Shown: in pieces, positions 1,687 through 49,717 of the stretch
Layout: every line of letters starts with the position of its first letter
How positions within the stretch are numbered: position 1 is the stretch's first letter
Made by a program: the position numbers and the translations under genes
Notes under the pieces: model-generated
Seen by the model: only the letters and a program-made list of their open reading frames with translations
The model's database searches: none
What the model was told of the DNA's origin: nothing
DNA from: Azolla caroliniana
Lineage: Eukaryota; Plantae; Polypodiophyta
Reading direction: 5' to 3'
NCBI GenBank assembly: GCA_043228905.1
Contig: JBHGNT010000001.1
Location: 29,946,001-30,010,000 of the forward strand
DNA: 64,000 nt

Positions 1687-3418
1687 TGTTTTTGGCACAA
1701 AAACCCTTGGTTTTCTTGTCAGAGAGTCATCCTAATGTTTATCTTTACCTTCAATCTAGTGAGGAATAACTTATGTTTCTATGAATATTCAATAGCCATG
1801 TTGGAATTAGTGTTGAAGATGCATTCCAGATTTCTATGAGAATATGATTGCAAAAAGACTTGAAAGGCATTTAGGATGTTTGTGTTTTTTTATGAACATG
1901 GTAGATTTTTATGAAGATATGATAGCAGCCAAAAATGTTTTGAATCTGTGCCAAAACAACATAGAACTCTGTATAGATCCAACTGCCATTGAATGTTTTT
2001 CGGGTGTCTGTGCTCAGGCTTGGTTCATGTTTATACAAAGATCTGACTGCAACACAACTTTTTCTTGTCCGAAATTCATGTATGTCTGGAAAAACAAGGA
2101 ACATTTTCAGAGAATGCAATGTTTCCTGATTTTTCACATCAGTGTTATTAATTTTTTGCTTCAAAAACAAATAAACAACAGACACATTGCGATGAATAGA
2201 GAATATTGATTGATCCCAAAATATCTGATTGGCATGTTTGGAAAAATTAGGATGTTGAAGACAAAACAAGGGTTGCAAAGGCATAAACTAAACATCGTGT
2301 TCACTTCATGAACAGAATCAATATCTGGCCTTAAAGATCGGAAATGTTTTTGAATGAATAAAGTACTCGTTTTTGTCAAGAACGACCAATAAAAAAGGAA
2401 AACATCCACAGCTAGCCATGATTTATCCTAAACGATACAGATTCTATGAAGATCTGATTGCAACAAACGTTTTCTGGACCTATCCATGTTTGAAAAAGCC
2501 GAGGAGATTACAAAAATTGCAATTCCCTCAGAGGTTTTTGATAAACTTATGCAGCCATCTATTTTCTTCACGTTCAATGAAAAAGAACCAGAGAATGGAT
2601 GTCGACCGTTAGGAGGATAAAGGTTTGAATACTGGAATTGTTTAGAAATAAATAATGAGTGACTTACTGTAAGAAAAAGCAGAAAAAGATCAGACATTTG
2701 ATGGGTAACTTTGAGAAAGGAGATCTTACCACGGATGCTGTTCTGGGGTAAAGGAACTACACGTGAAGAACAGGAAAAACTCAGAGAATCCATAGAAAAC
2801 CTTGAATCGGAGAGGCCATGGCTAACCTTAAACGGGATTGAAGATCGTGGCGCGTTTCCAAGCAGAGACGAAAGTGACCGTTCGATGGAAGAAGAAGAAG
2901 CAGCGGAGGATGAAGGGGAACGACAGAAAAACTCAAAAGAATCGATGGCTAACCTAGAAGGCAGGAGAGGAGATCTGGTCTGCCATTTTGTTTGTTTGTT
3001 TGTTTGTTTTTTTCCATGGATTAGGGAAGGAAGGGAGGGATGGGGGGGATTAAGAAGCAGAGAGCATTGGCCCCATTTTCTTCTTCTGTTTTTTATGTGT
3101 GTGGGATAAGGGCTTTTCTGTTCCTCTCCTTCTTTTCTGTTTTGGTAGATACATATATCATATATGTATTATTGATAGTCCTAGAGTAATCTCCATCCTT
3201 GATACAACAGCATACATATATAATGTCAAGTGTTCTATATAGACTACATATAGCCAATAGGATAGATCATAGGACATTCATAAGGGCTCTGGACCAATGC
3301 CCGGCCATGTGAACTTTAGGGGGGTCAATGCATAGCCATGTGAACTTGGGCCAACCTATCGTCCTGCTTTATGGACTCAATATTTTATACCTATAGGCAA
3401 GCTAAATTTCGCAAGAGT

Positions 3419-4043
3419 CCTATATATTTGGATGGCAGCTTTCAAAATTAGAGATGCGTCTCTTTGAATCGAAGTATACACTTGGAGCTCGTTAGGTCGC
3501 CACATATGTACATGGTGCAGCTGGACAATTCTAGAGAGGAGCATGCCATTATCTAACTTTTACCGTTGCTTGGAAAACAAGACAATCCTGGCAATAGAAC
3601 AAAGTGGGAGCATTGCATTTTTTTTATCTCGCCGTGTATTGTTTTTGCTAGCGAATCTTAAGTTGTGTATTTTTCTCATATAAAAACTTTGATCACAATG
3701 CTATCTTGAGATCATGGAATTCCTATATATTTGGATGGTAGCATACAAAATTAGAGGCATGTCCCTTTGAATTTAAGTATGCATTTGGAACTCGTTAGGT
3801 TGCAATATACATGGTGCAACTGGAAATTCTAGAGAGGAGCATGTCATTATTTAACTTTACCGTTGCTTGGAAAACAAGACAATCATGGCAAAGGAACAAA
3901 GTGGGAACGTTGCCTTTTTATGCAATAGTTGCTTACAAATTCGTCGTGTATGTTTTTGTGAGCGAATCTTAAGTTGTGGATTAAAAGTTGTGTGTTTTTT
4001 CATATAAAAACTTTAATCATAATTCTATCTTGAGATCATGAAC
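3419..4043. repeat. Diverged ~300-bp tandem duplication
   Basis: Copies ~3419-3720 and ~3722-4043 both start CCTATATATTTGGATGG, share GTTGCTTGGAAAACAAGACAATC, and end CTATCTTGAGATCATG. Confidence 0.9.
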
Positions 4044-13350: not shown

Positions 13351-13538
13351 TTTTTTTTTAAGTCAATATCCTTCGTTCATTATTGTATATGCTTCTCCCT
13401 TGACATGAACTCAATAGTTATAGGCAAAAGTAAATATTTTCTTTGCCGTTATTTTTTAAGTTAATATCCTTTGTTCGTGAGTGTAGATGCTTCTCCCTTG
13501 ACACAAACTCAATAATTACAAACAAAAGTAAATGTTTC
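13351..13538. repeat. ~98-bp tandem duplication abutting the solo LTR
   Basis: TTTTTTAAGT(C/T)AATATCCTT...ATGCTTCTCCCTTGACA...AACTCAATA...CAAAAGTAAAT occurs twice. Confidence 0.8.
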
Positions 13539-13974
13539 TGTTAGAGATTATTCCTAGTGTAAGCATGAAATAAGGAAATAAATGATTGAGAGAAAGAAAG
13601 GTGCCGATCCACCCAACCACCCCCGAGTGAACCAATCGAGACGGAGTTGAGACTTGATCGGTGTCCCATACCACCACTATGGCATTGAGTTGTACTTGGT
13701 ACTGGCGCGCTCGCTACAAGATTTTCTTCACCACAAGATCACAGTCTCGACGTAGTCGAATGATGTCCCTAATTAGGGTAGCTAGGCCTCATATTTATAA
13801 TGAAACCTAAGGCCCCTAGGCAAGTTCACACTTGGCCCTTTCGGGTTGTCTCAATTCCTATAATTAAAAGTAATCTTCCCTTTACACTCTTGATCAACCC
13901 TTATACTTTATCCTTGTGTGTAGAATACTACCTTACAACTTACCACGGGATAAATTATGGTCATGCCCGTTACA
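13539..13974 (-). mobile_element. Solo LTR (436 bp) with 5-bp target-site duplication
   Basis: Termini TGTTA...TTACA, flanked by GTTTC (13534-13538) and GTTTC (13975-13979). TATAAATA on the minus strand at ~13792-13799 gives the orientation. CpG-rich relative to the flanks. Confidence 0.85.
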
Positions 13975-15429
13975 GTTTCTTTGCCATTAGAAATAACATT
14001 GAGTTGAATTCTGTGCTATTCTCTGTTGCCCAATTTTTTGTATTCGTAACTGTAATCAATTTGTAATAGTAAAGAGGATAGGTGTATGTAGCTTTGCAAG
14101 CTCCTTAGAATTTGACTTTAAATATAGACCAAGTCAAAGTCCAGATTTTGCATGGAAAGAACGGCAGTAATGTTGCCTTTTATGCTAAATATTATTTTTA
14201 AGTTGAATTGCACTAACAGGGACGTGTATACTGCATCACCTACATTAGACCCTGGTTCGCTGGAATGAAATTCTACATTTCTCTACCACCAGTCTCAGAA
14301 TTATTAAATATGGGGCAACTGAAAATATAGTTAAGAATCCAATGCATAACAATCAACCCTTCACCTAATCATAACAATTAGATGGCAAAACTGCTGTCAT
14401 TGTCTGTAACGTATGATGTATGTTGGCGAAACTGCTGGCTTCTCAAGAATTGTGAAGAAAACAAATTAGGAGCAGATTGAGACAGTCACTTTCATCATGC
14501 AATTTATTTCTATACTGATAATTTATTTTGTTTGTTAAGTAGTTTTTTATTAGATTTGTTTCTATTTAAAGTAGTTGCTAAATAGTCATTAATGCTCCTG
14601 CAGATTGCTGACACTGACTAAAGTAAAAAAAAAAGCTGCGCTGTTGGATAGGTCTTCATTGCTACCTATCTTGAGAAGTGAGGGAGAGGAGACCTTGTTG
14701 CTTTTTTAATATAGAAAATCCTCTTGTATAATGCAAGACGGTGTGTGTCAAAACTGTTTCAATTGGATGCAATTTACGTTTTAAACCTTGTGATGTGTCA
14801 AGACTAAGGTACTTCTATTATATCTTTGTCCTGTGGTCAATCTTCTGTAATTGTTACTGCTTTATTGAGGTCAATCCAATGAAATTAAAACTCAGATAAG
14901 GGTGCCCATTGAAAAAAAAATGATGCTTTGCTTTACATCCCCCGGAAGCCGTAGATCTTTTGATCGTTTTCTCAATCACAAGCATCTTTTGCTTTATGTT
15001 ATTGATATGTCCAGAAGTCTACATTATTGAGCTGATAGTTAGCAAGTGCATCGTCTGAAATAGATTCAAATGTTTTTAGTGTATGTGTACCAACTCAAGG
15101 TACATATGCATTGTTTCATATCATTTGTGTTTATGGAATGAGGTTCGAGTGAAATGAATGAATGCCGAACAAAGCAGTACCTGTCATTGACAATATCATA
15201 TATTTGGTTAGAATAGTGAAGTCAATGGCATGCATAATCAACTGGTTTTTGAATCAAGTGGGGAAGTGAGGGTTTCATTGTATTCTGCAACCCATCTGAC
15301 AATATTATGATTATTACGATTGGCAATCAGGATGAAGTTGTGGTGGCAGTGATCAAGTAGCTTTTAACTTATCTGCCAAAGATTATAAATCTGACAAGGG
15401 GGTAATTTGTTGAGGCATGTCTGTTGCAA

Positions 15430-19484: not shown

Positions 19485-19863
19485 TAACAATCGGCAACGG
19501 TTCGGTTTGAACTGAACCGAACCGCTAAATCGTGGCTTAACGGTTTAAACGGTTCGGTTTGGTTTCAACAGTTAGAACTGCGGTTTAGCAGTTTTATTAT
19601 TTTTATTTATTTTTTAAAATTTAAAAAAAAAATTGTAAAATTTTGTTTTTAAACAATCTTTTCATTTTCATGCCTTATTCTCACATTTTAGTAAAATCTT
19701 TAAAATTTTGAAATTTTAAATAATGAAATATTTTAAATTTTAAATTTTGACCTAAGCTGAAAACTGAAACCGAACCATGAAACCATGGTTTTAACAGTTT
19801 GAAATTTTTTTAATGGTTCGGTTCGGTTTTGATCCTCTCGAACCGAACTGTTGCCAATTGTTA
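19485..19863. mobile_element. hAT-type MITE (family A) with perfect 8-bp TSD
   Basis: TIRs TAACAATCGGCAACGGTTCGGTT / AACCGAACTGTTGCCAATTGTTA, subterminal AACCG repeats, TSD AGCCCACC at 19477-19484 and 19864-19871. Confidence 0.92.
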
Positions 19864-22142: not shown

Positions 22143-22560
22143 AATACTTCAGGGTATTCTAAAAGAGATTTTAAACATAAAATGTGCATTTTTTAAACAA
22201 CTATGCTTCCATTCATCAGAAACTAGGTTTAGTCATCACCATACTCTGATGCATTACTTTGAACTTTAGATGGCAAATCAGATTTCATTTTATATCCTCA
22301 AATGAAGTTTGTGCATCATTCTGAAGACAAAATTTGCCAAATGTCCACAAATGAAGGCTAGTTGAATACTTCAGGATATTCTAAAAGGTATTTTAAACAT
22401 AAAATGCACGTTTTTTTAACATGCTTCCAGTCATCACAAACTAGGTTTAGGCATCACATACTCTGATGCATTAATTTGAACTTTAAATGGCAAGTCAAAT
22501 TTCATTTTATCTCCTCAAATGAAGGTTTGTGCATCATTTTATGTTCACAAATGAAGCCTA
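22143..22560. repeat. ~225-bp tandem duplication
   Basis: AATACTTCAGG.TATTCTAAAAG...ACTAGGTTTAG...TACTCTGATGCATTA...CTCAAATGAAG.TTTGTGCATCATT occurs twice. Confidence 0.85.
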
Positions 22561-25646: not shown

Positions 25647-25998
25647 GCTCCAAGGCTTTCAAAATGGCTTTTGAGTAGCACTCAACCATTCTCCAAGCAA
25701 GGACATATAGTAAGTATTGTTACATGAAAACTTGGAGAGATGCATTTTGAGATTGCAGCTTTTAAAGAATATGAGAGTGCTCCAAGGCTTTCAAAATGGC
25801 TTTTGAGTAGCACTCAACCATTCTCCAAGCAAGGACATATAGTAAGTATTGTTACATGAAAACTTGGAGAGATGCATATTGATATTGCAGCTTTTAAAGA
25901 TTATGAGAGTGCATGAGAGGGATAAGCATCAAACTGATCTTTTTGCACATCTCATGCACTCTCATATTCTTTAAAAGCTGCAATCTCAATATGCATCT
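25647..25998. repeat. Near-perfect 132-bp tandem duplication followed by a ~48-bp inverted copy of its end
   Basis: Copies 25647-25778 and 25779-25910; hairpin arms ~25870-25918 and ~25950-25998. Confidence 0.9.
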
Positions 25999-28900
25999 TT
26001 ACAATGTAGCTAGAACAATTGCACAATGTTGTGGCCTAGGTGCATACAGTTTACAAAGTTCTCAATTCAATTTATTGAGTTATGGCATTTTACCTATGAT
26101 TACTAGACGATATTTATGTTATAGTTCCACTTTATGTGTTTTGGTGTCAAGTTTGTTTTTAAGTATGTGTAAAATAGAATATTTTTGTCCGGAAAAGTTT
26201 AGCACTAGGTTTATTTCAAGAATGAGCCAAGGTTACCAAAGTATTTAAAATATGATGCAAAAAAGAACAAGGTTTATTGTTGACTTGCCATGCAAGGTGT
26301 GACTTAGTCAATCTCCAAATTGAAGTTTTTTTGTCTACATTTGATGCAAATACAAAGGGTGGCCATGTTTGTCTAGGGGAGTTACTTTCTTGAAGAAATG
26401 TAATGAAATGGAAGACGTTCGACAACATCTAACCATTATGGTTCACCGTCTAATATCAATGCATATTTCACACAAAATAATGAGTGAATGTGATGATGAA
26501 ATGAGAAATGCCACACGCCTCCTATAAAAGTATAATAAGATGACCCTTCCTATTGTTGAAGTAGCACATTCATCTACAAAAAGGGATGGGCATAACCAAA
26601 TTGAGGAAAAAAAGTCTTTGCATCATTAGAAAAGAAAAAACGCACTTAACCTAGGCACACTATTGTAAAATTTTAGGGTAGTATTACTCACTTTGTATAC
26701 TTCTATTTTACCAATGATTAATTATTCAAGTATACATGGCATGAATCAAGATCGTCCCGCACTACGAAATATCAAATTCCTATTCATTAATCAGTTGCCA
26801 TAAGATCCATCACATTCCAATTTCACAATTCAAGAATTGATGGAGTTGTTTGACAATTATTCATGGTAATTAATGTCAGGTAGTGTATATGATGTTCTTA
26901 CATTGTGCAAAAACCAAGTATTATGTGATTGTTTGAAACAACCAAAGACAAGCTTCTTTCGCAAATATTCATTGTTGGAGGATCCACACATGGGAGCTAA
27001 TGTGTTATATATTACTATAGATGCATAAAATGGAAATATTGTTGGGTAGTACCGTCAACATATATTGATGTATGCTATTTATTCCATTAGAATATTCCAC
27101 ATAAGAGGGTGTTGAGAGTGATCCTTCCTATTGTTGGATATATGTTGAAGCCATTGAAGAAATATTTGCTAGTGACTTTGTTTTTGGACCAATGACTTTG
27201 GGTAGTTTCTTTTTGAAATTGTCAACTTGAAAACAATTTGCAAGTTCACCACTTAACAATGGAAATTCTGAAGTACAAATAATTTCTAGTTTATTATGAG
27301 ATTCTTGGAGGCTTCTCGTGTTTGTGCTTCTAATAAATGTTTAAAACAAGTCCCCGGATAATGTTATGCAAATAGGCTACAATTTCTTTATATTTAAAAT
27401 CTTTGATGCAATTCTCTCTCTTTTTTCAAGTTTCAAAGTACAGTTGAAATTATGGTCATAAGGCCATATATTATATTCCCTATTATATTACATATGTTGT
27501 CGGGGCCAACCAATTTATCGATCTAGCTTAGTATGTTTTGTAAAGTATGGGAATGCGTGAGTCAAAGACAACCTGCACCATTCGCCACTCCTTTATGTTG
27601 TAAATTCTACAAGTATTAACCATTGCATTGTATACCACTGCTTCCTTGTGCCCATGTAAACTTTCAATTTTCTTGTTCACTTCTAGAGTTAAATGTCAAC
27701 CTTTTGTCATCACTTTTAAAGCATTGCTCGGTCAAATTTTTGATAAAATGGTATACTTTTGGCAACACACCTTGGGTGTATCTAGCATGAATTTCTCGTT
27801 TGTTGAGCATTTTGTTTTGACTAGAATTGGCAAACTTGTAGACAGCTAAGCGTTGGTTCTTTGGCAAAGTTTTCAATGACTTTCTCGTGATATTGTTTTT
27901 GCATTTTACGTGTTGGGAATACAACTCTTTTTGCAAATGGGCTCTTGGATTATTGGTGGCATCATAATTACAATATATACTAGTGGTATCCCATGTTTTG
28001 CATCTTGTCTCGAAGTTTATAGTTGTTTTATGAAACCACCTATCAAGTGTAATTGAACCCCAACAATAGGTCTTATTTAGGACACATGTTGAGAGTTCAT
28101 ACCTGGGATGTTGAGAGTGATGATTTATTACTTGAATTGACATTGTTATACAAAATGGGGACAATTTATGTGGCTCAATTTCAAATCCATCTTGTGCTAA
28201 AAAACACACATGACTCATTTGGAAACATTTAGGTGTTGCTCAAAAGAAAGAATAAGATGCACTCATTGAATAATGTTCCATCAACATTCTTTGATTAAAA
28301 ACTCGGGTCCAAAATATTTATAACATATCATTGATCAATTGTTATTCCATGTTGTGTCTATTTAGGTTGAACTAACACTCATATGAAAGCCACATATCAT
28401 GAAGCATTTTGTGTCATGTTATTGGGAAAACAGAAATAATTCATTTTGAGGCGCATACACAAAAGCCACATGAATGCAAAAAAATTTAATTGGAGGAAAA
28501 GAACAAATGGGGCTTGAAGCTTTACTACTTGACAAGGAAAGTAAACAAGTTCATATTGAATTGGACCTCCAACATAAATTTGTACTGGGAGACCACATGG
28601 CAGAACATGCACCATCACCTAGTGTAGCATGTGGGCTATTCAATCAATTAGTAAAGTTTTGTTTATTGTCTCTCCTACCCAATGAGACAATATACCCATT
28701 GGGCTAGGTAGGAGAGCCGATTATTGTTTTCTCTTCCTAATGACTAGCTTTAAATACTATTGTGAGTAGCTAAACATGAACCCAAACTTGCAATAAAACA
28801 TGTTTATCTATAGGGAGAATGAAAGAAGATGCAAATTTAGGTTACCATGTGAAGGATAAAAATAAGAATGTTTGTGTAGAGAGAGAATATGACAATAAGG

Positions 28901-30980: not shown

Positions 30981-32449
30981 ATGGGTTTTCCATAATGAAG
31001 ATTTGGGCTTATTTATCTCTTTATTTTATTTGCTCTTTTCTTTCTTTCTCTCTTTCTTCTTCTTCTTCTTCTTCTTCTTCGTCTTCTGAAACACTCGCAG
31101 AGTACTACTTCTGCCACTCTTCCTCCTTCGATTTGCTGAAGAAACGATGTGAGACATAGCGCTCTGTTCCCCCACTCTTTCCTCTTTCTGTCTACTTCGC
31201 TCTACACAGGTAAATTCTTCTTCTTCTTTTCCTTCTGCTCCTCTCTCTCTCTCTCTCTCTCTCATTTTTAAACGAACAAATCTAACTAGCTCGTTCAATT
31301 TCCATTGTAATTTATTTCATTCTATTTTTATTTGGTTTTACTGCTCTAATTCACCAAAATTCTCCCAGATCTGCTCAATCTGGCTTGGTTTCTCTTTTCT
31401 AAATGAGTGAATTATGTATGCTTCATAAACTCTTTATGGCTTCTACAGTCCCCATATTTTATAAGATCTGTTTGTATTTAATCCTCATTTAGAAGAAGCA
31501 GAGAAGAGATTTTTAAGGCTTTAATGTAATTCAAGTTTTTTAAAGCTTTTAATGAGAATTTCAGGGTTTCTCATACCCTTTGATGAATTTTTCAGCTGTG
31601 TAAGGAATTTTAAGATTTTGTTGAAAATTTGGAAATTGTAATACAATTCGGGATTTCTGTTAGAGATTTTAATCAAATTTAGGGTTTAGGATTTGGATAC
31701 GATTTTGGAACTTTACACTTTTGTCAGTATTTAGTTAGATTTTTTGATGAAACTCAACGAAATTCAGTATTCTTTCTAAGGTTTTGATGGAATTTAGGGA
31801 TTTTGTAAGCCTTTGATAGAATTTAAGAATTTTAAGCTCTTGGTGATGAATTTTTATTCAAACATATTAGGTATAGAGTCTTTTGCTTTTTCACTCAATG
31901 GGAAACGTGGTTGCCATTTGCTGTGTGTGATTCAATCTGGCTTAAATTGTTTCTTTTGAGGTTGATTTCATTTTCTTGAGATGTCATAACCTCCAAGTTT
32001 TATGCTGAGCTCAATTAATTCAATGCCAAGTTTTGGTCTCCTGAACAAAGCAAGTGGACACTTGCTATTATGATTTGCCTTTGGAACTAACAATGTTTTC
32101 TATAAACACAATGATGAGAAGCATATTACAAATGATGGAAAATTCCTCATGAAGTTATGCATTACTTACTTGGCAGTTGTCAGGATTTAAAAGAATAAAG
32201 GGTTTGGCAGGAGAAATCCAGTGAAATTGCCCATTTCTCTTGAGGATAATGACAAGAAGAAGCCACAGGCTCTATTTGTGCTCAATAGGGCAATGGAAAA
32301 AGCCAGGACTGGGGCGTAGTTCTTGGAAATTTCCCAAAAGGTTTTCTTCTAAAGATAACGAAGAACCTTATGTGTTAAGCACAAATAATAGAATCTTTTG
32401 TTTCTATGCGTGGCATATGGAATTGTAAAAGTTTATTCTGATATAGGAG

Positions 32450-35400
32450 AGCAATAGCCATGATTTGGTTGTTCAAACGATGCAGACTATTTTGAAAGAA
32501 AAATTCATGTAATCTACATGTTTAAGTTTGGAACCGCAAAGGATTTATGCCTTTGGAAACTGGAATATGCAGCCATGGGTCATAGTTGATAGCCAAAGCA
32601 AGCCCTCGAAAGGGTCATGCAAGGAACTCATATAGAGATTTGATTGTGGATCAATTGACAATCGATATAGTTTTCCCCAATGCATCATCAGTTATTGCTG
32701 CATTTGTTTGCAGTCTATCAGCTGAATGAGAGATTTGCATCACCTTTGCTCAAGAAGAGGGTTTGCTTATCCTTTCCTTTGTCATAGACCACTCGTTCTC
32801 TACTTAGAAGATGCCTGATGAAAGCTTTGTTGCTGCAACTGATATGTACTGATTTTTTATGTTTAGAAGATGATATGATTACATTCTATTATGCACAATT
32901 GCCTTCTTCAGAGGAGCATGCTTTCAGCTAAAGACATGTTTATTCCCAGATCAAGGAAACTAATCAGCAAAATCTCGTATGTGCTTAATTGATCTGATAG
33001 ATGTTCCAGTTTTGGGAGGCATTGATGTCTGACGTGTCTATTGTTTCAGATCCATGTATGAAATGCTGGAAGTGACAAACTTGATCATAATTTCCATCCA
33101 CACTTATTCAAGCGCAGTTATCACATGGATAATAAGTCACTATTGTTCAAGGGTCTCAATTCATTATTGGTTGTAAGCGATTGTGACCTCAATGCCTGGA
33201 TGTAGTGGCATACCTCATGGGTGGTCTTTATCTGGTTGCATACTCCTTGACAGGGGTTCTGACCCCAATGCGCCAAAATTTTCCTTGCAAAATCCTGCAT
33301 TGCTTCTGGCTCTGAACTGACTGGTCTCCACCCATGGTATCCAGAGTATATTATGAAGGGTTTTGAACCTTGTCAGTATCCACAGTTCCCTGTTACCTTG
33401 GCTTTCCTCGATTTCTGTTGTATAATTGCAACATGTGGTGATAGGATTAACATTCTGATAAGAATATCTGATCTTGTCATCTCGTTCTGCTTATTTCCAG
33501 ATATCCTTGGATTCAGGTCTATGGGGGCCTCGCCTGCCACTTCCATCACATTCTTTTACAGTTCAATGTGGGGCGGAAGTGGTTATCTAGATGCCAGCTT
33601 TGTTATCCGCAAGCTCCTCCTTGCAGTCCTACTTCTCCTCTGTTACCACCTAGTGATTTGAAATCTACCTCCCACTTTTTAGGATCAATTAATGTAAGAT
33701 TCAGCATGGGCCATTTTGATATCTGAACAAGAAAGGTCATTTTGGCAATCAGAGAATGTAGGACATTTAGAAAAGATAATTACTTTATGAGGGATAGACC
33801 GTCAAGGTAGTCCGCCGTTTTCCCTTGTATAAAAAATCCTGCCCGAGCCTCGAAAGGCAAAGAAGAGTTGGTGTAATTTTAACGGAGCACTATTGCCACC
33901 ATATTGCACCATTGCTGTTGCTTTCTTTGAGTGTAATAAGTTATACTGGTTTGATTATTTAGATTTCTTGCTTTGCCTACTAACCAGTATGCTTCTGATG
34001 GCATGTTACAATCCCTGCCTAGGAGGATCAACATCTTTGTATCTGGTTTTCATAATTGATAATAGATATGGATCCATGCATTGTGTCATGGAAAAAAATG
34101 AATTATACCTCACAGGCCCGCCCAAACTTTTGACACATTAAGATAAGTAACATCACAGAATTCTATAATGGCTGATTGGGAAAGAGTTGCACTAGCTGAC
34201 CTGTCATGGATTCAAAAGGCAGATAGAATGAATAGCAATTCAGTTGCAGTCTTTCATCAGTGTCTGGTGGGATTCTACATGACATCCTTCCAAGACAGTA
34301 AGGATACTCAACATACTGAATTTGATTTTGCCACTAATTCTATTCAGAGCTTCTCTGGGAGGAACTGACCTCAGATGAGACAAAGCATGCACTAGATGAA
34401 CTCTGTTCATATGTTTGGCCAATAGTGTATCCAGATGCTGCCCATTCTCATTTGCTTCCTTTCATTGAAATGATGCTGCTTATGCGTGGAGGATCAATCC
34501 CTGGGGCTTGTCCTAGGGATGGACTTCTGGACTTACTCGACAAATTTTCTTGGAGTTTTGGGCCGTTATCTGCATTCCAGATCTTCCAAATGCTATTCAT
34601 GGTGGTTTTCTGCTTCTCTATACTGGAATTTTTTTCTGTTATTATAAGGCTTTTGAGCATGCTAGAGAAAAACCTTATGACAGTGAGAACTCGGAATTCA
34701 TGGAAGCCTTGTTGCTGCATATGGCTTTTCCACAATGTTAAGTCACTACCGTGAAGGATTCTATCAAGATCCGGCAGGTATATAATGTCATTATGGCTAT
34801 TATCTGGACAGTCTTACTTTGCTTGGGTTTCAGGGCAGTGTATATGTTTCACCCTTTACATAGAAGCAGTCACTTGTCCAAAGCCTTTGTTTGGATCTGA
34901 TGGTTGAGTGGATACTCTGCCTTGCATGACTTAATAGTGTTTCCTCTCAACTTATAGGGTAGCTTGGGGTTTTAGATCCTAAGATGCAACAGTAGGTACA
35001 TCCTGTCCAACCTCTTCATCCAGGGGCTATTGTTGACTAAGGAGTTTTTAAAACTTTCCACTTGCCTTACTCTCTTGCGATGGAAGAATTTAGTTCAAAA
35101 TTTAGATTCCTCTTCAGAGGCATTTCATCTTTCCTATTGCATCCTTCTCACACTTCATTTTACAGAGATGTTTTTTTTTTTACTTCGTTCAGATCCTTTA
35201 TTTATTGCCATTTAGAGAAGAGATTCAGTGGCGATCTCTTATTGGAGTACATCTATCAGACATTGAGTCAGTGTTGATTGGGAGACATGGGGCAGAAGAA
35301 TGCCCACTATGTTCAATTATGATCCCACTTGTGTATATAGATGTGAATGATCACGTACCAAAAATCACAGGTTCAATGTTTATAGCTCTTCTCTCAGGCT
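32450..35400 (+). mobile_element. Highly decayed L1-like LINE inside the probable leader intron of the trihelix gene
   Basis: Remnant motifs: KPYDSENSEFMEALLLHMAFPQ (~34670-34740, cf. KAYDRVNWEFL..MGFP), GACP.DGL (~34500, cf. KSPGPDG) and LGVLDP (~34963-34980). Boundaries are approximate. Confidence 0.55.
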
Positions 35401-35733
35401 CACAGTTCAGTTTATGAGTTTCGTGATGTGGGATTTACATTTGGTAGCTTTCTTGGGGAGCATTCTGCAAAGGCCAGGTATTTGTTTTATCTTATGATAA
35501 GAATTGATGGAACTCCATCACTGAGCTCATAAGATTAGGATATTCCACAGGCACATTGCAATGTGGCATTGTGATGATTCAAGAGACTATAAAATAAGTC
35601 TTTTGTAGAGTTTCCACCATCACCGTGTGGTGTGTCAAGAAGTGTATATGCTCTAGTTGGTAATGAGTGCCATGGCATAACTTGGTTCTAGTATGCAGAG
35701 TAAGTGGGATACTTACGCCGCTCCAGAGGCAGC

Positions 35734-36048
35734 TGTTACGGGCATGACCATATAATATCCTGTGGTGAGAATTTATTGTAGTATTCTATACACGTGGATA
35801 AGTGTGAGGGTTAAAAGAGAGTGAAAGAAGGGGAGGATTACTTTTAATCCTCAGGATTGAGACAACCCAAGTGTGAACTTGCCTGGGAGCCTTGGGTCAC
35901 ACTTGGCCTAATGGGTTGTCTCAATCCCGAGGATTAAAAGTAATCTTCCCCTTCTTTACACTCTCTTTTAACCCCCACACTTATCCACGTGTATAGAACA
36001 CTACGGTAAATTCTCACCATGGGATATTATATGGTCATGCCTGTAACA
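35734..36048. mobile_element. 315-bp palindromic (fold-back) element derived from an LTR end, with 5-bp TSD
   Basis: Arms 35734-35869 and 35912-36048 are inverted repeats. Termini TGTTAC...GTAACA; TSD GCAGC at 35729-35733 and 36049-36053. Arms are homologous to 13806-13974. Confidence 0.9.
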
Positions 36049-36825
36049 GCAGCAGAGGAAAGAAGGCAAGATTTCCTCACAACTTGGGGTTGGTCTGGGC
36101 TTCTCTTGGATTCAATCACAGCAACATGACATGGAGAATCTTCTCTTGTGCACACATCTTCTCAGCATTCTCATAGAGCGACCTTCATTGCTGCAGTTGT
36201 ATATAGCATGTTTGTACTGTCCTCAAAATTACGAAGCAACAGCAAATTTTTACCTGTTTTCCATAGAGAGAGAGAGAGAGAGAGAGTGACCAGAGGGATG
36301 TAGGTCAGTTTTATACTGTCTGGCAGAGACCAGAAGTTCATGTATTCAACACCTACATTCTGCAAAGCAATTCTTCAATGTGTGTGTGTGTGTGTGAGTG
36401 AGTGAGAGAGAGATAAAGAGAGAGAAAGATTTTAGAGGTGTTTATGCAGCTGCAGATTGAAGAGTTGTGAGGAACTACGTGCTTCTAAAGGTTTGACAAA
36501 TGTCGGGTGATGTGATGGCTTCAGGTTTTTACTGCATACCCTAATCTTCTTGAGTTCATCAGATAATTCAGGATAGTCAAAATCTTTTCTCATTTTTCTT
36601 CCTCTGTTAGATGCCGCTTCTAGTGTAGTTCTAGCATCTATAAAAGTAGAGGAAAGCATCGCCGAACCAAATAATGGAACCCCGCTCCCTCCATCATCAA
36701 TAGATGCACACAGTTCTCAAACTGAACAAGTTCAAATTCAAGCGCAAGCGCAAGCTCAAGCTCAAGCTGAACCAATTCCTCCAACTGTGGTTGCATCCAA
36801 TTCGGTTTCACCATCTGAAGCAACT

Positions 36826-37821
36826 ATGGGATCTGTTGGGAATATTTTATCTTCAGTTTCAGCTCCGACCAGTAGCACATTGATAGTGGAAGGAAGTAAT
36901 ACCATTCAACCAACCTCGGCCTCCACTTCTGTTCTACCTAACTCTACTCCTCTTTTAGAGAGTGCCCATTTGGTACCCGAACGAGGAGAGGATATCTCAC
37001 TTAATGAAGAAACACTGGTAGACAAATCAAAGGCCAAGAAACGGTCAAAACGAGCATCACTCGACCCTGAAGGTCGGGATGTAAATAAAACGAAGGAAAA
37101 GATCCGATGGAAAGATGTGTGGGTAGCTCAGCTTATTCATATACGAGGAAGAATGCACCCAACATTCACTAATCCTCAAAGGCAAAGGGTAGACCTGTGG
37201 CAAATCGTTGAGCGTGAGATGACCAACAGTTGCTTTGGATTTGATAAGGATTCGGAAGCTTGCCGGAAAAAGTGGCTCAGAGTCTATAAAGAATACAAAG
37301 ATGATTTGCACCTCTCTAATAAAGACGAATCACAAAAGTGTCGATTCTATGATTTGATTGACTTTTACATGGGGGCTCGTGCCATGAGTAACAATATCAA
37401 TAATAGTAATAATAATAATAATCACTTGTTCCATGCGGAGGTTGTGCCTATATCCAAGCATCCTCCATTTCCTCTCATGAATGAGGTAAATGTAAAGGGT
37501 GAAGATAGTGGAGCTATTATATTACATCCAAATCCAGATGGTATTAGAGCTTCAGAGGGGATAACAAAGAAGCAACAAAAAAGACCTCGGGTTACTGAGA
37601 AACCTCTTATAATAGAGAAGCCACAACCAATGCCAGAGCCAACAGAAGCTTCCCCTCCACCCACAAAAAAAGCCCATACAAAAACGGTCCACACCATGCT
37701 CTCGGAACTTGTATGTATTGGTAAGGAAATGCTCCAGGCGACGAGAGAATATGAGAATGAGAAGATTTCAGTCCTCCATTCGATGAAAGATATGCTCGGC
37801 CGCATAGCCAAGAAGATGTGA
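36826..37821 (+). CDS. Trihelix / Myb-SANT-like DNA-binding protein (331 aa from the first ATG; N-terminus may extend upstream)
   Basis: RWKDVWVAQLIHIRG..DLWQIVEREM..KDSEACRKKWLRVYKEYK..CRFYDLIDFYMG shows the GT-1/Myb-SANT W..W..C..KW..FY..D pattern. Helical C-terminus. The frame is open back to the acceptor at 36611. Confidence 0.85.
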   Translation: MGSVGNILSSVSAPTSSTLIVEGSNTIQPTSASTSVLPNSTPLLESAHLVPERGEDISLNEETLVDKSKAKKRSKRASLDPEGRDVNKTKEKIRWKDVWVAQLIHIRGRMHPTFTNPQRQRVDLWQIVEREMTNSCFGFDKDSEACRKKWLRVYKEYKDDLHLSNKDESQKCRFYDLIDFYMGARAMSNNINNSNNNNNHLFHAEVVPISKHPPFPLMNEVNVKGEDSGAIILHPNPDGIRASEGITKKQQKRPRVTEKPLIIEKPQPMPEPTEASPPPTKKAHTKTVHTMLSELVCIGKEMLQATREYENEKISVLHSMKDMLGRIAKKM

Positions 37822-46087: not shown

Positions 46088-49000
46088 ATGTATTTAGATA
46101 ATCAACAAGTAGCAATTAGCTTTCCCAACCAACAATACTCACTTAAAACCCTAGAAATGGAACCCAAAGAGAGCTACAATAATAATTTAATAGAGAATCC
46201 TACGGTAACAAGCCGTTCTAATGCCTACAAGGTTATGAGTAATTCTCATCACAATGATGTGTTTGAGAACAATAGTCATGGAAACTTCTTAGAGAACCTA
46301 GAGATTAATGGAGTACGTAGTTGCATGAATCATATTGGTGGCAATGAGAATTGTAGCTCCAAAAGGAAGAGGGACTGGTTGAGTACCTTACGTACTCCTA
46401 GCCAATATAGTGCAAAGAATTGTGTAAACTCCTTGATCACTAGTGTCAAGGTTAGCAATGGATCGAGCTTGCCTCCAGGATGGGAACAATACATGGATCT
46501 CAAGGTACATAACAATTTATATTAAGACATTTAAGACTTTCATTGATAATTTATAAATTTGTCTTTAGTTTTATAGTTTTTTTTAACTAGTTTATAACTC
46601 CTCATTTAATTGGTTTATGACTTATGGATAAGCAATTTCTTATTCTTAACATGGTGGGGATAATTGTTACATGACTAATGGTTTTGGACTATATATATGC
46701 ACAACTTAGTAAATGAGGCTTGTGTAAGCCGTTTACTTTGAATATAGAAAAGAGACTTTGGTATCTCTATAAATATGGTTCTTCTTCAAAGCCCAAGTGA
46801 AGTTAGCTTCAATTGAAAAGTCTTGGCCAACTATTTCCAAGGTAGGTTATCTCTGAATCTATAGTCATTAATGGTGGCCCAAACTACTTCCTATAGAAAA
46901 ACTCATATGGTGTTTATGACTTATGGATAAGTAATTTCTTATTCTTAACATGGTGGTAATAATTGGTACATGACTAATGGTTTGGACTATATATACGCAC
47001 AACATATTAGTAAATGAGGCTAGTGTAAGCCGTTCACTTTGAATATAGAAGAGAGAATTTGGTATCTCTATAAATATGGTTCTTCTTCAAAGCCCAAGTG
47101 AAGTTAGCTTCAATTGAAAAGTCTTGCGAAGTCTCACACTTCTTAGTCTTTCCAAGGTAGTTTATCTCCAAATCTATAGTCCTTAATGGTGGCCCAAACT
47201 ATTTCCTATAGAAAAACTCACGTGCTTGGGTTGTTAGAACAAGTTTGCCTTCTATATGTATTAGTATTTCCAAAGTGATTATGGTATTGAATAAGGACCT
47301 CACATTAGCATGTAATTATCATAATGAAGAGGACCGAATGATCATGCATTCAACCCGTATATTCCGCAATGACATCTAGTAAGGTAGTTGTGAGTTTTGA
47401 AATTGGATGCATGGGTTTGTAGCAATTTGGCTTACAACTACGGTATATGATAAAAAACGAAGAGATAGACTTGAGATTATGTGACATTTTTTACACACAC
47501 ACCCCAAAAATTTAATCATCTCTAGAGTGCCAATATGTGACATCTCTAATTTCAAACTTCCTTTAGATGAAAAATTATGCCGATTTTTACGTGCTCACCT
47601 TGAGGGAATGAATCCATCTGGAAGATAAAGATTTCCATGTAGTTTGCTTGCATCAATGTAAGTAACAATCGGCAACGGTTTGAACTGTACCGTGAAATCG
47701 CGGCTTAACGGTTTGAACTGTTCGGTTCGGTTTCAACAGTTAGAAACTGCGGTTTAAATGGTTCAACGTTTTTTTGTTTAAAAAAAAAAAGGTTTTAAAA
47801 TTTTAAAATTTTGTTTTTAAACAATCTTTTTATTTTCAGGCCTTCTTCTCACATTTTGGGAAAATCTTTAAAATTTTGAATTTTAAAATAATGAACATTT
47901 AAAATTTTGAATTTTGACCTAAGTTGAAAACTGAAACCGAACAACGAAACCACAATTTTAACAATTTGAAATTTTTTTAACGGTTTCGTGGTTTAGTTCA
48001 AGTTTCAAAAAAATTTAACGGTTCCGTTTTGACAAACCGAACCGTTGCCGATTGTTAAATATAAATCATCTGTGGAGCTGCCCTTCTAGAGACAAATCTA
48101 TAAGTCATCCTTTTCAAACGTAATATCTAAAGAACTAGGGACGAATAAATTGTATACAATAATATTTACTTTTATGTAGGTGACATTGTATATTTATAAC
48201 CTCTCGGATTTATTTTTTCTAGCATTTCGTTGAGAGCTGCGTGTGATGAGTTTCCATGTTAAACTCATTCACAAAATGCAAAAATATTTACCAAATGTGC
48301 AAAGATGAGACAATTTATTTATCACATTGTACATTGCTTATAATGACTTTTTTGTGTTCAAGCCTAGGCTTGAAAGGTGTGACAAAGGGAGCATTGATTG
48401 CTAGCATAGAATTCACTAGGCCTTTAAACCAAAATAAATCATGAGACTACTTAACAAGCGAACGAAATCAGTAGTTGGCCATGCAATTCCAATATCATTA
48501 TTAGCTCATCTAGAAACTTATCCCAAGATGAACACTTCCTTGGGGAAGAAGTTGTGGTTCAAGCAAAACCATTTCTTTGGCTCAACGAGAGTCCAACTAG
48601 AAGAAGACACTTGGTACTTTCCAAAAGAGATGCTAACAATTTTGAAAATCATATAAAAATAAACTTATAAGTTTCCTATGAGTAGAATGGAATGCAAACT
48701 AATTGCAAATACTTTTAAATTGACTGATGAATCCTAAATTAAAATGTGCATTTGCTTGTTTAAAATTAGAATAATCAAGTTATTATTTTGGTTTAATATG
48801 TTGAGATTAGTAACCAATGATATTGACAATCATTAGAATGGAATGCATTTAAGTAATTGCAATACGTTTTTAGTGATGACTCCTAAGTTAAAAACGTGCA
48901 TTTGTTGTTTAAACTTAGAATAATCAAGTTATAATTTTGGGTTAATATGTTGAGATTAGTAACCAATGATATTGACCATCATTAGAATGGAATGCATTTA

Positions 49001-49717
49001 AATAATTGCAATACTTTTAAATTGAGTGATGACTCCTAAATTGAAATGTGCATTTGTTGTTTAAACTTAGAACAATCAAGTTATAAATTTGGGGTAATAT
49101 GTTGAGATTAGTAACCAAATGATATTGACCATCAGAATCTCATTTCAATTTAACAGTCAGGCGAGACATACTATGTGAATTGGAAGACCAGGACAAAGCA
49201 TTTGAGGATACAATGCCCTGAGGTGCAGAAATGCTTAGCAGAAGCCATGGCATCTAGTCAAAGAGCATGTGACAAAGCTAGCACCATACAACAAGATGAG
49301 CACACATCTAATTCGAGTACAGAAAGATGGCTGTCGAAGATGACAGCTACGGCATCAGCACTTGCTAATGGCGCTAAAGATACCACAACACCTAAAAGCC
49401 CAAACACTCCGACCATCCAAACCCACCATAGCGATCTCATGAATTTCTCCATGCCCCCTACTCAAAATCACGCAACCACAGATCTATTAGGGAGCCTCAT
49501 GCGTAAAAATATAGAGAAACCGAGTTCAATGTCTCAATTTGACGATCGGAACTCAAATCGAGGGGATCCACAAGTTCAGCCGCCATTAACGACCGTTGTT
49601 TGTGGTGTTTGTAATATGTTTGTCATGTTGTCCTCACATTCTTGCCCTAATTGCAATACTGTCATCCTTGGTACATCGCCCTCTGATCATATTGCCAGCT
49701 CTACAACATCCACATAA
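46088..49717 (+). CDS. CURLY FLAG LEAF 1-like WW-domain protein, 2 exons (46088-46504, 49157-49717), ~325 aa
   Basis: A phase-0 intron splits the WW domain LPPGWEQYMDLK|SGETYYVNWKT. The C-terminal CGVCNMFVML..CPNC Cys cluster is characteristic of the CFL1 family. Confidence 0.85.
46613..47220. repeat. ~300-bp tandem duplication in the WW-gene intron
   Basis: GTTTATGACTTATGGATAAG...GGTGGCCCAAACTA.TTCCTATAGAAAAACTCA occurs twice with high identity. Confidence 0.9.
47663..48057. mobile_element. hAT-type MITE family A, second copy
   Basis: TIRs TAACAATCGGCAACGGTT / AACCGTTGCCGATTGTTA. Colinear with 19485-19863. Degenerate TSD AATGTAAG / AATATAAA. Confidence 0.88.
48684..49133. repeat. Three ~150-bp tandem copies just upstream of the exon-2 acceptor
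   Basis: AGAATGGAATGCA...GTGCATTTG..TTAGAA.AATCAAGTTAT...TAATATGTTGAGATTAGTAACCAA..GATATTGAC occurs three times. Confidence 0.9.

Follow-up and report, generated by a model that had tools for sequence, protein, structure and literature searches.

A 315-bp palindromic insert carrying two U3 ends of a chromovirus LTR belongs to a recurrent class of fold-backs

How could a short palindrome, both of whose ends are the same end of an LTR, come to be inserted in a genome with a target-site duplication of its own? This question is raised by one locus in the 64,000-nucleotide stretch of Azolla caroliniana DNA analyzed here (the window). The window sequence contains a 315-bp imperfect palindrome at 35734-36048, with the termini TGTTAC...GTAACA and a perfect GCAGC duplication, as given in the preliminary description. 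The arms, which had been put at about 136 bp, are longer (U3 1-152 on the right and, with deletions, U3 1-173 on the left). The following features were identified:

35729-35733, no strand: left copy of the target-site duplication, GCAGC (from the sequence and from empty-site contigs in runs X3 and X11)
35734-35897, plus strand: long arm, U3 1-173 of a Ty3/gypsy chromovirus LTR (the LTR of locus L029 serving as ruler), minus an 8-bp and a 1-bp deletion, read from the TG att end
35877-35896, plus strand: unpaired 20-nt spacer, U3 153-172, in single copy
35897, no strand: fold-back junction; one T is assignable to either arm, and an att end is on neither side
35897-36048, minus strand: short arm, inverted U3 1-152, terminating exactly at the att end (...GTAACA on the plus strand)
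36049-36053, no strand: right copy of the target-site duplication, GCAGC (from the sequence)

Relative to L029, the long arm has 6 differences in 164 columns and the short arm 7 differences in 152 columns, and the optimal junction (x,y) on this ruler is (172,152) or (173,151). Self-alignment of the insert gave 85% over 325 columns. Folded as RNA, it reaches -240 kcal/mol (z -31.7), a value that 0 of 100 shuffles equaled, and an Rfam search of the window returned 0 matches. GCAGC is itself nearly palindromic. The insert stops a few bases short of the TATA box of the LTR and thus lacks TATA, R and U5, as well as PBS and PPT. There is no sign of function, mobility or self-spread for this copy.

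Both arms match one end of a solo LTR located 22 kb upstream:

13539-13974, minus strand: ordinary solo LTR, 436 bp, TG...CA, from a more distant subfamily of the same family as the arms

Insert positions 1-164 align to the minus strand of this unit at 74.7% (E 6e-27) and positions 164-315 at 76.6% (E 9e-25). The homology ends a few bases before TATAAATA (13792-13799, minus strand, within the solo LTR), the point at which it had been said to stop. The unit is a true LTR, with TG...CA ends and a GTTTC duplication at 13534-13538 and 13975-13979, and its relatives show PPT and PBS context. It is about 79-80% identical to the LTRs of loci L029, L043 and L015. Judged by site differences, it is evidently not the parent subfamily of the arms, because these differ from it at 29-30 sites and from L029 and L043 at only 6-7 (95-96% identity).

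The parent of the arms is a Ty3/gypsy chromovirus with integrase and chromodomain. We obtained 59 related loci from a motif scan of metagenome contigs, using a pattern anchored at U3. In L015, a collapsed high-coverage contig, a 478-aa integrase frame is followed by the PPT, 2 nt, the LTR and the PBS. Pfam domains identified in the frame are Integrase_H2C2, rve (slightly below cut-off), SH3_Tf2-1 and Chromo. A PPT adjoins the U3 end in L015 and L045 (a purine run, 2 nt, then TGTTAC), and TGGTATCAGAGC, which we take to be an initiator tRNA-Met primer binding site, adjoins the U5 end in L015 and L059. The TGTTAC end is U3, because the PPT adjoins it and the PBS adjoins the other end; the duplicated part is therefore on the U3 side, as first proposed, and the orientation of the parent element is fixed. 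Full gag-pol relatives were found at 80-81%. According to Neumann et al. (2019; PMC6317226), most Tcn1 members self-prime, and the presence of a tRNA PBS argues against the Tcn1 clade for the parent. The arm family is abundant, with 2703, 2970, 1827 and 45 contigs aligned from four public runs, and run X1 alone has 80+54 contigs in which the TGTTAC end adjoins unrelated flanks.

The high-coverage subfamily closest to the insert has a non-canonical att end, its U5 finishing in ...TAATA instead of ...CA, at the following positions:

L015:1876-1888; L029:1711-1723; L043:2655-2667; L045 (minus strand, LTR end at 948): U5 ends in ...TAATA

It might be speculated that such an end could make U3-U3 substrates relatively better for integrase.

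The history of the insertion was examined by aligning contigs of the four public runs (X1, X3, X11 and X13) to 35200-36250. An empty site, which the preliminary description had suggested be sought in relatives, was found in X11 (record 11, organism C) and X3 (record 27, organism B), where contigs join the left flank (to 35719) to 36049. These contigs have 10 letters between the flanks, where 9 would be expected with one GCAGC and 14 with two. Record 1 of X1 is identical to 35200-35760 and passes the left junction by 27 letters (the bridging threshold is 31), and no listed contig of the four runs bridges the central or right junction. In X13 the insert is covered and the flanks almost not at all, and the small-share runs probably hold the repeat only. 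Left out of the evidence were 36064-36099, a stretch without coverage in X1, summed contig depth as a measure of copy number, and joints with coordinates summing to about 71782, which reflect just the two arms. In X3 (organism B), both a window-identical and a diverged haplotype are present at 35232-35459 (records 24 and 25), as in a hybrid, polyploid or mixed sample.

The two arms of the insert differ by 9 substitutions in 143 columns, all 9 of them transitions (K2P 0.067), and by the 8-bp and 1-bp deletions, both in the left arm. Six of the 9 substitutions are in CG or CCG context and, compared with two real LTR copies, each arm carries changes of its own. An assembly flip would give identical arms; thus, the insert is old, has decayed like methylated DNA and is not an assembly flip. 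The rice LTR substitution rate is 1.3e-8 per site per year. At this rate the insert would be about 2.6 Myr old, a figure that uses a rate other than that of the host and that is inflated by CG decay.

A one-off aberrant integration had been considered at the outset, and it does not describe the family, in which such products are found repeatedly. Twenty-eight of the 59 loci could be resolved, the other 31 ending inside the LTR. U3-U3 fold-backs account for 10 of these 28, a fraction inflated by the easier assembly of short diverged inserts relative to long young LTRs and by a few sites that were assembled twice. L010 (a nested piece in the same orientation) was left out of the fold-back count, L024 and L055 (inverted U5 piece) were counted as resolved and not as U3-U3 fold-backs, and U5-U5 products fall outside the count of a pattern anchored at U3. 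The fold-backs are:

Complete short fold-backs (seven): L002, 120 bp; L003, 121 bp; L034, 91 bp; L044, 88 bp; L057, 119 bp; L058, 120 bp; L060, 130 bp
Other fold-backs: L021 (~285 + 32); L037 and L039, cut by contig ends

The 5-bp flanks match at 5/5 positions in L002, at 4/5 in L003, L057 and L060, at 2/5 in L044 and at 1/5 in L034 and L058. A target duplication matching at least 4/5 is thus present in four of the seven complete short fold-backs (chance P 5.8e-6) and absent in the other three and in L021. The inverted piece stops at the att end in 10 of the 11 cases with a visible far end, window insert included; the exception is L024, in which it falls short of the att end. In the 8 cases checked, the copy overruns into the flank by only 0-2 nt. 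All 10 junctions connect interior U3 to interior U3. Inverted microhomology of at least 1 nt occurs at 9 of the 10 junctions (background 43-44%), of at least 2 nt at 6 (background 16-17%) and of at least 4 nt at 2 (background ~2%), counts based on the best parent among 10 copies, a choice that favors matches.

Junction registers recur, with x+y of 120-121 in L002, L003, L057 and L058 and of 88-90 in L034, L044 and L039. Although L002 and L058 fold in a common register, they differ from each other in the subfamily marks of both arms (0-2 transversions within an element and 2-5 between the two), and L034 and L044 likewise differ in subfamily marks. The marks are common to both arms in the 5 elements compared; the arms of L021 are from different subfamilies. 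Because the junctions differ and the arms mostly carry their own LTR-subfamily marks, the fold-backs likely arose repeatedly and independently in related DNA. Some of the joins are probably chimeric, as L003/L024 and L044/L026 are each a pair of conflicting low-coverage assemblies of one flank that disagree on one side. Among the joints listed on the window, nine more read as fold-backs, two of which match the L002 and L034/L044 junctions.

Neither the 28 resolved loci nor the joints listed include a second copy of the 315-bp junction. Contigs that leave the insert at 35897 continue as normal LTR (21 in X1, 21 in X3 and 34 in X13), and the best-supported 15 of 165 joints on the L029 LTR reference include no inversions. 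The copy number of this junction is likely low. Two short junctions at 4-5x flank depth leave some room for amplification (35755>35982 in X3, 36 vs 7-9; 35754>35976 in X11, 49.6 vs 10). Viral contigs gave a single match, a chance 19-nt one in a phage structural gene, and genome contigs gave 0 matches.

Other rearranged forms of the LTR were also seen. L051:66-135, L042:1489-1660 and L049:906-1045 are internally deleted solo LTRs in which the U3 start is fused to the U5 tip; the duplication is 5/5 in L051 and 4/5 in L042, and two of them break near U3 46-50. L055:1972-2329 has an inverted U5 end piece ahead of U3 5-270 and is either another inversion product or a chimeric contig. At L029:1272-1328 (joint in X1, X2 and X3) and at 35989-36040 of the window (X11), contigs return from U3 ~60 to U3 4-9. 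These joints suggest a tandem array of ~57-bp units from the LTR start, at ~27x flank depth in X11.

We consider it probable, with appreciable doubt, that a plus-strand cDNA switched template within U3, acquiring two U3 ends, and was inserted by the integrase of the element itself. A cDNA with two U3 ends fits because of the precise att ends, the 5-bp duplications and the interior-to-interior junctions. Plus-strand synthesis, which starts at U3 base 1 (PMC2939329), would begin at the PPT, giving a new strand with U3 base 1 at its head. Around U3 173, immediately ahead of the TATA box, this strand would re-prime with its 3' end on U3 152, either its own or that of a sister plus strand, and copy back to the U3 start. 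Synthesis of the second strand, possibly by mutual priming of two plus strands or by hairpin re-priming, would then give a short linear duplex bearing U3 att sites at both ends, which integrase would join to a target cut 5 bp apart. The other fold-backs would likely be separate products of the same route. The insert is predicted to have been dead on arrival, because TATA, R, U5, PBS and PPT are missing. There is precedent in Ty1, for which PMC2939329 reports that integrase inserts non-Ty DNA ending in TG...CA and leaves a 5-bp duplication, and explains composite inserts by faulty priming and strand switching.

The two window arms have in common an A at U3 ~83 that is absent in the 20 other copies spanning this site, which points to one template for both arms. 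In a tree of 23 U3 copies, no branch was starred, and the two arms were grouped in 0% of 200 bootstrap trees. Microhomology at the junction of the window insert is 1 nt only, which counts against a template switch. This junction is at the base of a predicted DNA hairpin (U3 132-173), yet out of register with it. We also considered whether the short junctions, most of which fall within the U3 1-100 hairpin, are driven by a strong hairpin in U3. Folding energy does not support this idea, as U3 1-100 did not fold more stably than its shuffles (z -1.0 to 0.3 in 9/9 copies). The template switch is a likely mechanism that we infer from the junctions.

The main rival explanation is that host repair formed the palindrome inside a solo LTR after insertion. 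The LTR would break, its U3 side would fold back, a host polymerase would copy it as far as the LTR start, and the end would be rejoined to the right flank via the short terminal inverted repeat, with loss of R-U5 and with the target-site duplication inherited from the original insertion. Yeast breaks do give local fold-back inversions, of 2 to ~150 bp, by microhomology priming and end joining (PMC11724301), and the family includes internally deleted solo LTRs with duplications (L051 and L042, above). The near-palindromic GCAGC adds 2 nt of terminal homology at the window site, but the addition is just 0-1 nt at other sites, and the four closest LTR contigs (L015, L029, L043 and L045) end in ...TAATA rather than ...TAACA, which weakens terminal homology. 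Repair also demands an exact stop at the att end and a loss of ~280 bp every time, and 10 of the 11 inverted pieces end at att. The sites in relatives are empty rather than filled by a solo LTR, although that merely dates the insertion. Overall, we regard repair of this kind as unlikely. Alternatively, the U3 ends of two cDNAs may have been integrated in one concerted reaction, after which the host trimmed the inner ends and joined them by microhomology. This would explain the precise ends, the 5-bp duplication and the short junction homologies equally well, and host-completed aberrant integrations are known in retroviruses (PMC5041404). The L021 arms, which derive from two subfamilies, would fit as well, but this locus lacks a duplication and is possibly a chimeric contig. 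As arms share subfamily marks in 5 elements, and the window arms a private base, the two donors would always have to be sister copies. Furthermore, the products are short (88-315 bp), as expected of early plus-strand DNA and not of trimmed kilobase cDNAs. An origin from two donors is thus quite improbable.

Two origins had been offered in the preliminary description, a snap-back cDNA inserted by a retrotransposon integrase, which is the one that we favor, and a promoterless non-autonomous family, against which speak the lack of a second 315-bp junction among the 28 resolved loci and the joints listed, and the differing junctions and subfamilies. In its broader form, the latter would be a self-propagating, LTR-derived, MITE-like family that is excised or recopied by integrase or another transposase. 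The recurring registers (L002, L057 and L058; L034, L044 and L039), two of which are also joints in X3/X13, are consistent with such a family, as are the two joints at ~4-5x flank depth (X3 and X11). However, elements of one register stem from different subfamilies, the X11 joint of highest depth is on a contig with a tandem repeat, and the window arms decayed independently. The 315-bp junction is found in 0 of 28 resolved loci, contigs exit at 35897 into normal LTR in X1, X3 and X13, and none of the best 15 of 165 joints on the LTR reference is an inversion. We give a MITE-like family very little credence. Autointegration, which yields inversion circles in plant particles (PMC7197481), leaves an att end at the new junction; because the junctions here (10/10) join interior U3 positions, it is largely excluded. 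So too is an ordinary TIR transposon, as the arms are LTR sequence with PPT/PBS context and not the TIRs of a class II element. An assembly artefact might be suspected where no listed contig spans the central junction of the window insert, but a flip predicts identical arms where 9 transitions and 2 deletions were found, and the empty site matches the insertion boundaries. That any of these last three accounts for the insert seems exceedingly improbable.

The inserts combine features of several known systems. Like the LTRs and solo LTRs of Ty3/gypsy chromoviruses (Neumann et al., 2019; PMC6317226), the insert consists of LTR sequence and has TG...CA ends and a 5-bp duplication, the length reported by that source for 93.4% of the plant LTR elements surveyed. 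Unlike a solo LTR, which has one U3 and one U5 in a single orientation, it has U3 twice, inverted. The comparison with Ginger transposons made in the preliminary description holds for the long TIRs starting in TGTNR (Ginger1/Ginger2; Bao et al., 2010; PMC2836005). The 152-bp arms and TGTTA start fit the 40-270 bp and TGTNR stated for Ginger and GingerRoot. It fails for the transposase and the duplication. Ginger elements have an integrase-like transposase between the TIRs, whereas the insert has just a 20-nt spacer, and the sole integrase found adjoining these ends precedes the PPT of the LTR element. The duplication is 5 bp in the insert, but 4 bp in Ginger1/2 (PMC2836005) and 6 bp in GingerRoot (PMC6839031); in the pertinent part of PMC2836005, only TDD-4/5 are given a 5-bp duplication. 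Bao et al. suggested that Ginger1 TIRs might derive from two oppositely oriented LTRs (PMC2836005). The inserts are natural structures with LTR-derived inverted ends of the kind proposed for Ginger1, minus the integrase gene. The route described by Bao et al. is chance neighboring insertion, whereas here both arms appear to derive from one copying event.

Non-standard Ty1 inserts (PMC2939329) are alike in their TG...CA ends, 5-bp duplications and strand-switch composites, although natural U3-U3 palindromes are not described in the relevant sections of the Ty1 and retroviral sources (PMC2939329, PMC5041404). The aberrant retroviral proviruses of PMC5041404 differ in having one integrase-made and one host-made end. 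The inversion circles formed by autointegration are likewise inverted cDNA rearrangements, within particles, but have att ends at the junction, whereas the insert has outward-facing att ends and a junction between two interior positions (PMC7197481). MITEs resemble the insert in being short, non-coding and hairpin-forming, with TIRs and a target duplication. However, MITE ends come from a class II transposon and not from an LTR U3, and MITEs form amplified uniform families, whereas the insert has no second 315-bp junction in the 28 resolved loci and the joints listed. TRIM-like elements (PMC13570524) share an LTR origin, but have two LTRs in direct orientation that enclose a PBS and a PPT, in contrast to inverted partial LTRs with neither. 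A literature search with little coverage of subscription journals found no published description of recurrent U3-U3 palindromic inserts, and the relevant sections of PMC3212995 contain nothing on LTR-derived palindromes.

A neighboring open frame is found downstream:

36577-37821, plus strand: open frame with a Myb/SANT-like (trihelix-type) DNA-binding domain (Pfam PF13837, E 2e-11)

This frame is ~0.5-0.8 kb downstream of the 315-bp insert. Of the 43 listed frames in 32000-36600, 17 were searched against Pfam, with no match above cut-off. At 31050-31210 the sequence is CT-rich, and a GT donor occurs near 31210. This stretch may be the untranslated first exon of the Myb/SANT-domain gene, in which case the palindrome would be in a 5' intron and would be transcribed as a hairpin. 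Elsewhere in the window, the best named matches of PsaG are moss, lycophyte, fern and liverwort proteins (58-68%), which points to a seed-free land plant as host. An AT-rich element whose inverted ends start with TAACAATCGGCAACGG is present in two copies (82%), at 19485-19863 and 47663-48057, the former with an 8-bp duplication (AGCCCACC); we take this element to be a likely hAT-type MITE. A 132-bp tandem duplication (98%) at 25647-26004 overlaps a 55-bp inverted repeat with a 31-nt spacer. Local tandem duplications with units of 150-300 bp (78-89%) in AT-rich DNA were identified at 46613-47220, 48683-49134, 3418-4040 and 22143-22538.

In summary, the insert is a member of a recurrent class of chromovirus copying by-products and not a demonstrated mobile family. 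A bolder version, in which the chromovirus routinely turns its U3 end into short TIR elements that are inserted by its integrase, and in which some of these (the 88-91 and 119-121 bp classes) are re-mobilized as DNA, strikes us as improbable; if the short palindromes were re-mobilized, they would constitute a new LTR-born class of MITE and a living example of the LTR-to-Ginger transition. Annotation pipelines for transposable elements would probably call such inserts MITEs or miss them. The spectrum of junctions would record the in vivo slip sites of reverse transcriptase. Each insert is potentially a ready hairpin against a very abundant family and, if transcribed, could give rise to silencing RNA. 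An LTR retrotransposon can repeatedly leave inserts that resemble DNA transposons, with long inverted ends, integrase-type tips and a 5-bp duplication, and the route from LTR to TIR proposed for Ginger (PMC2836005) becomes testable within one genome.
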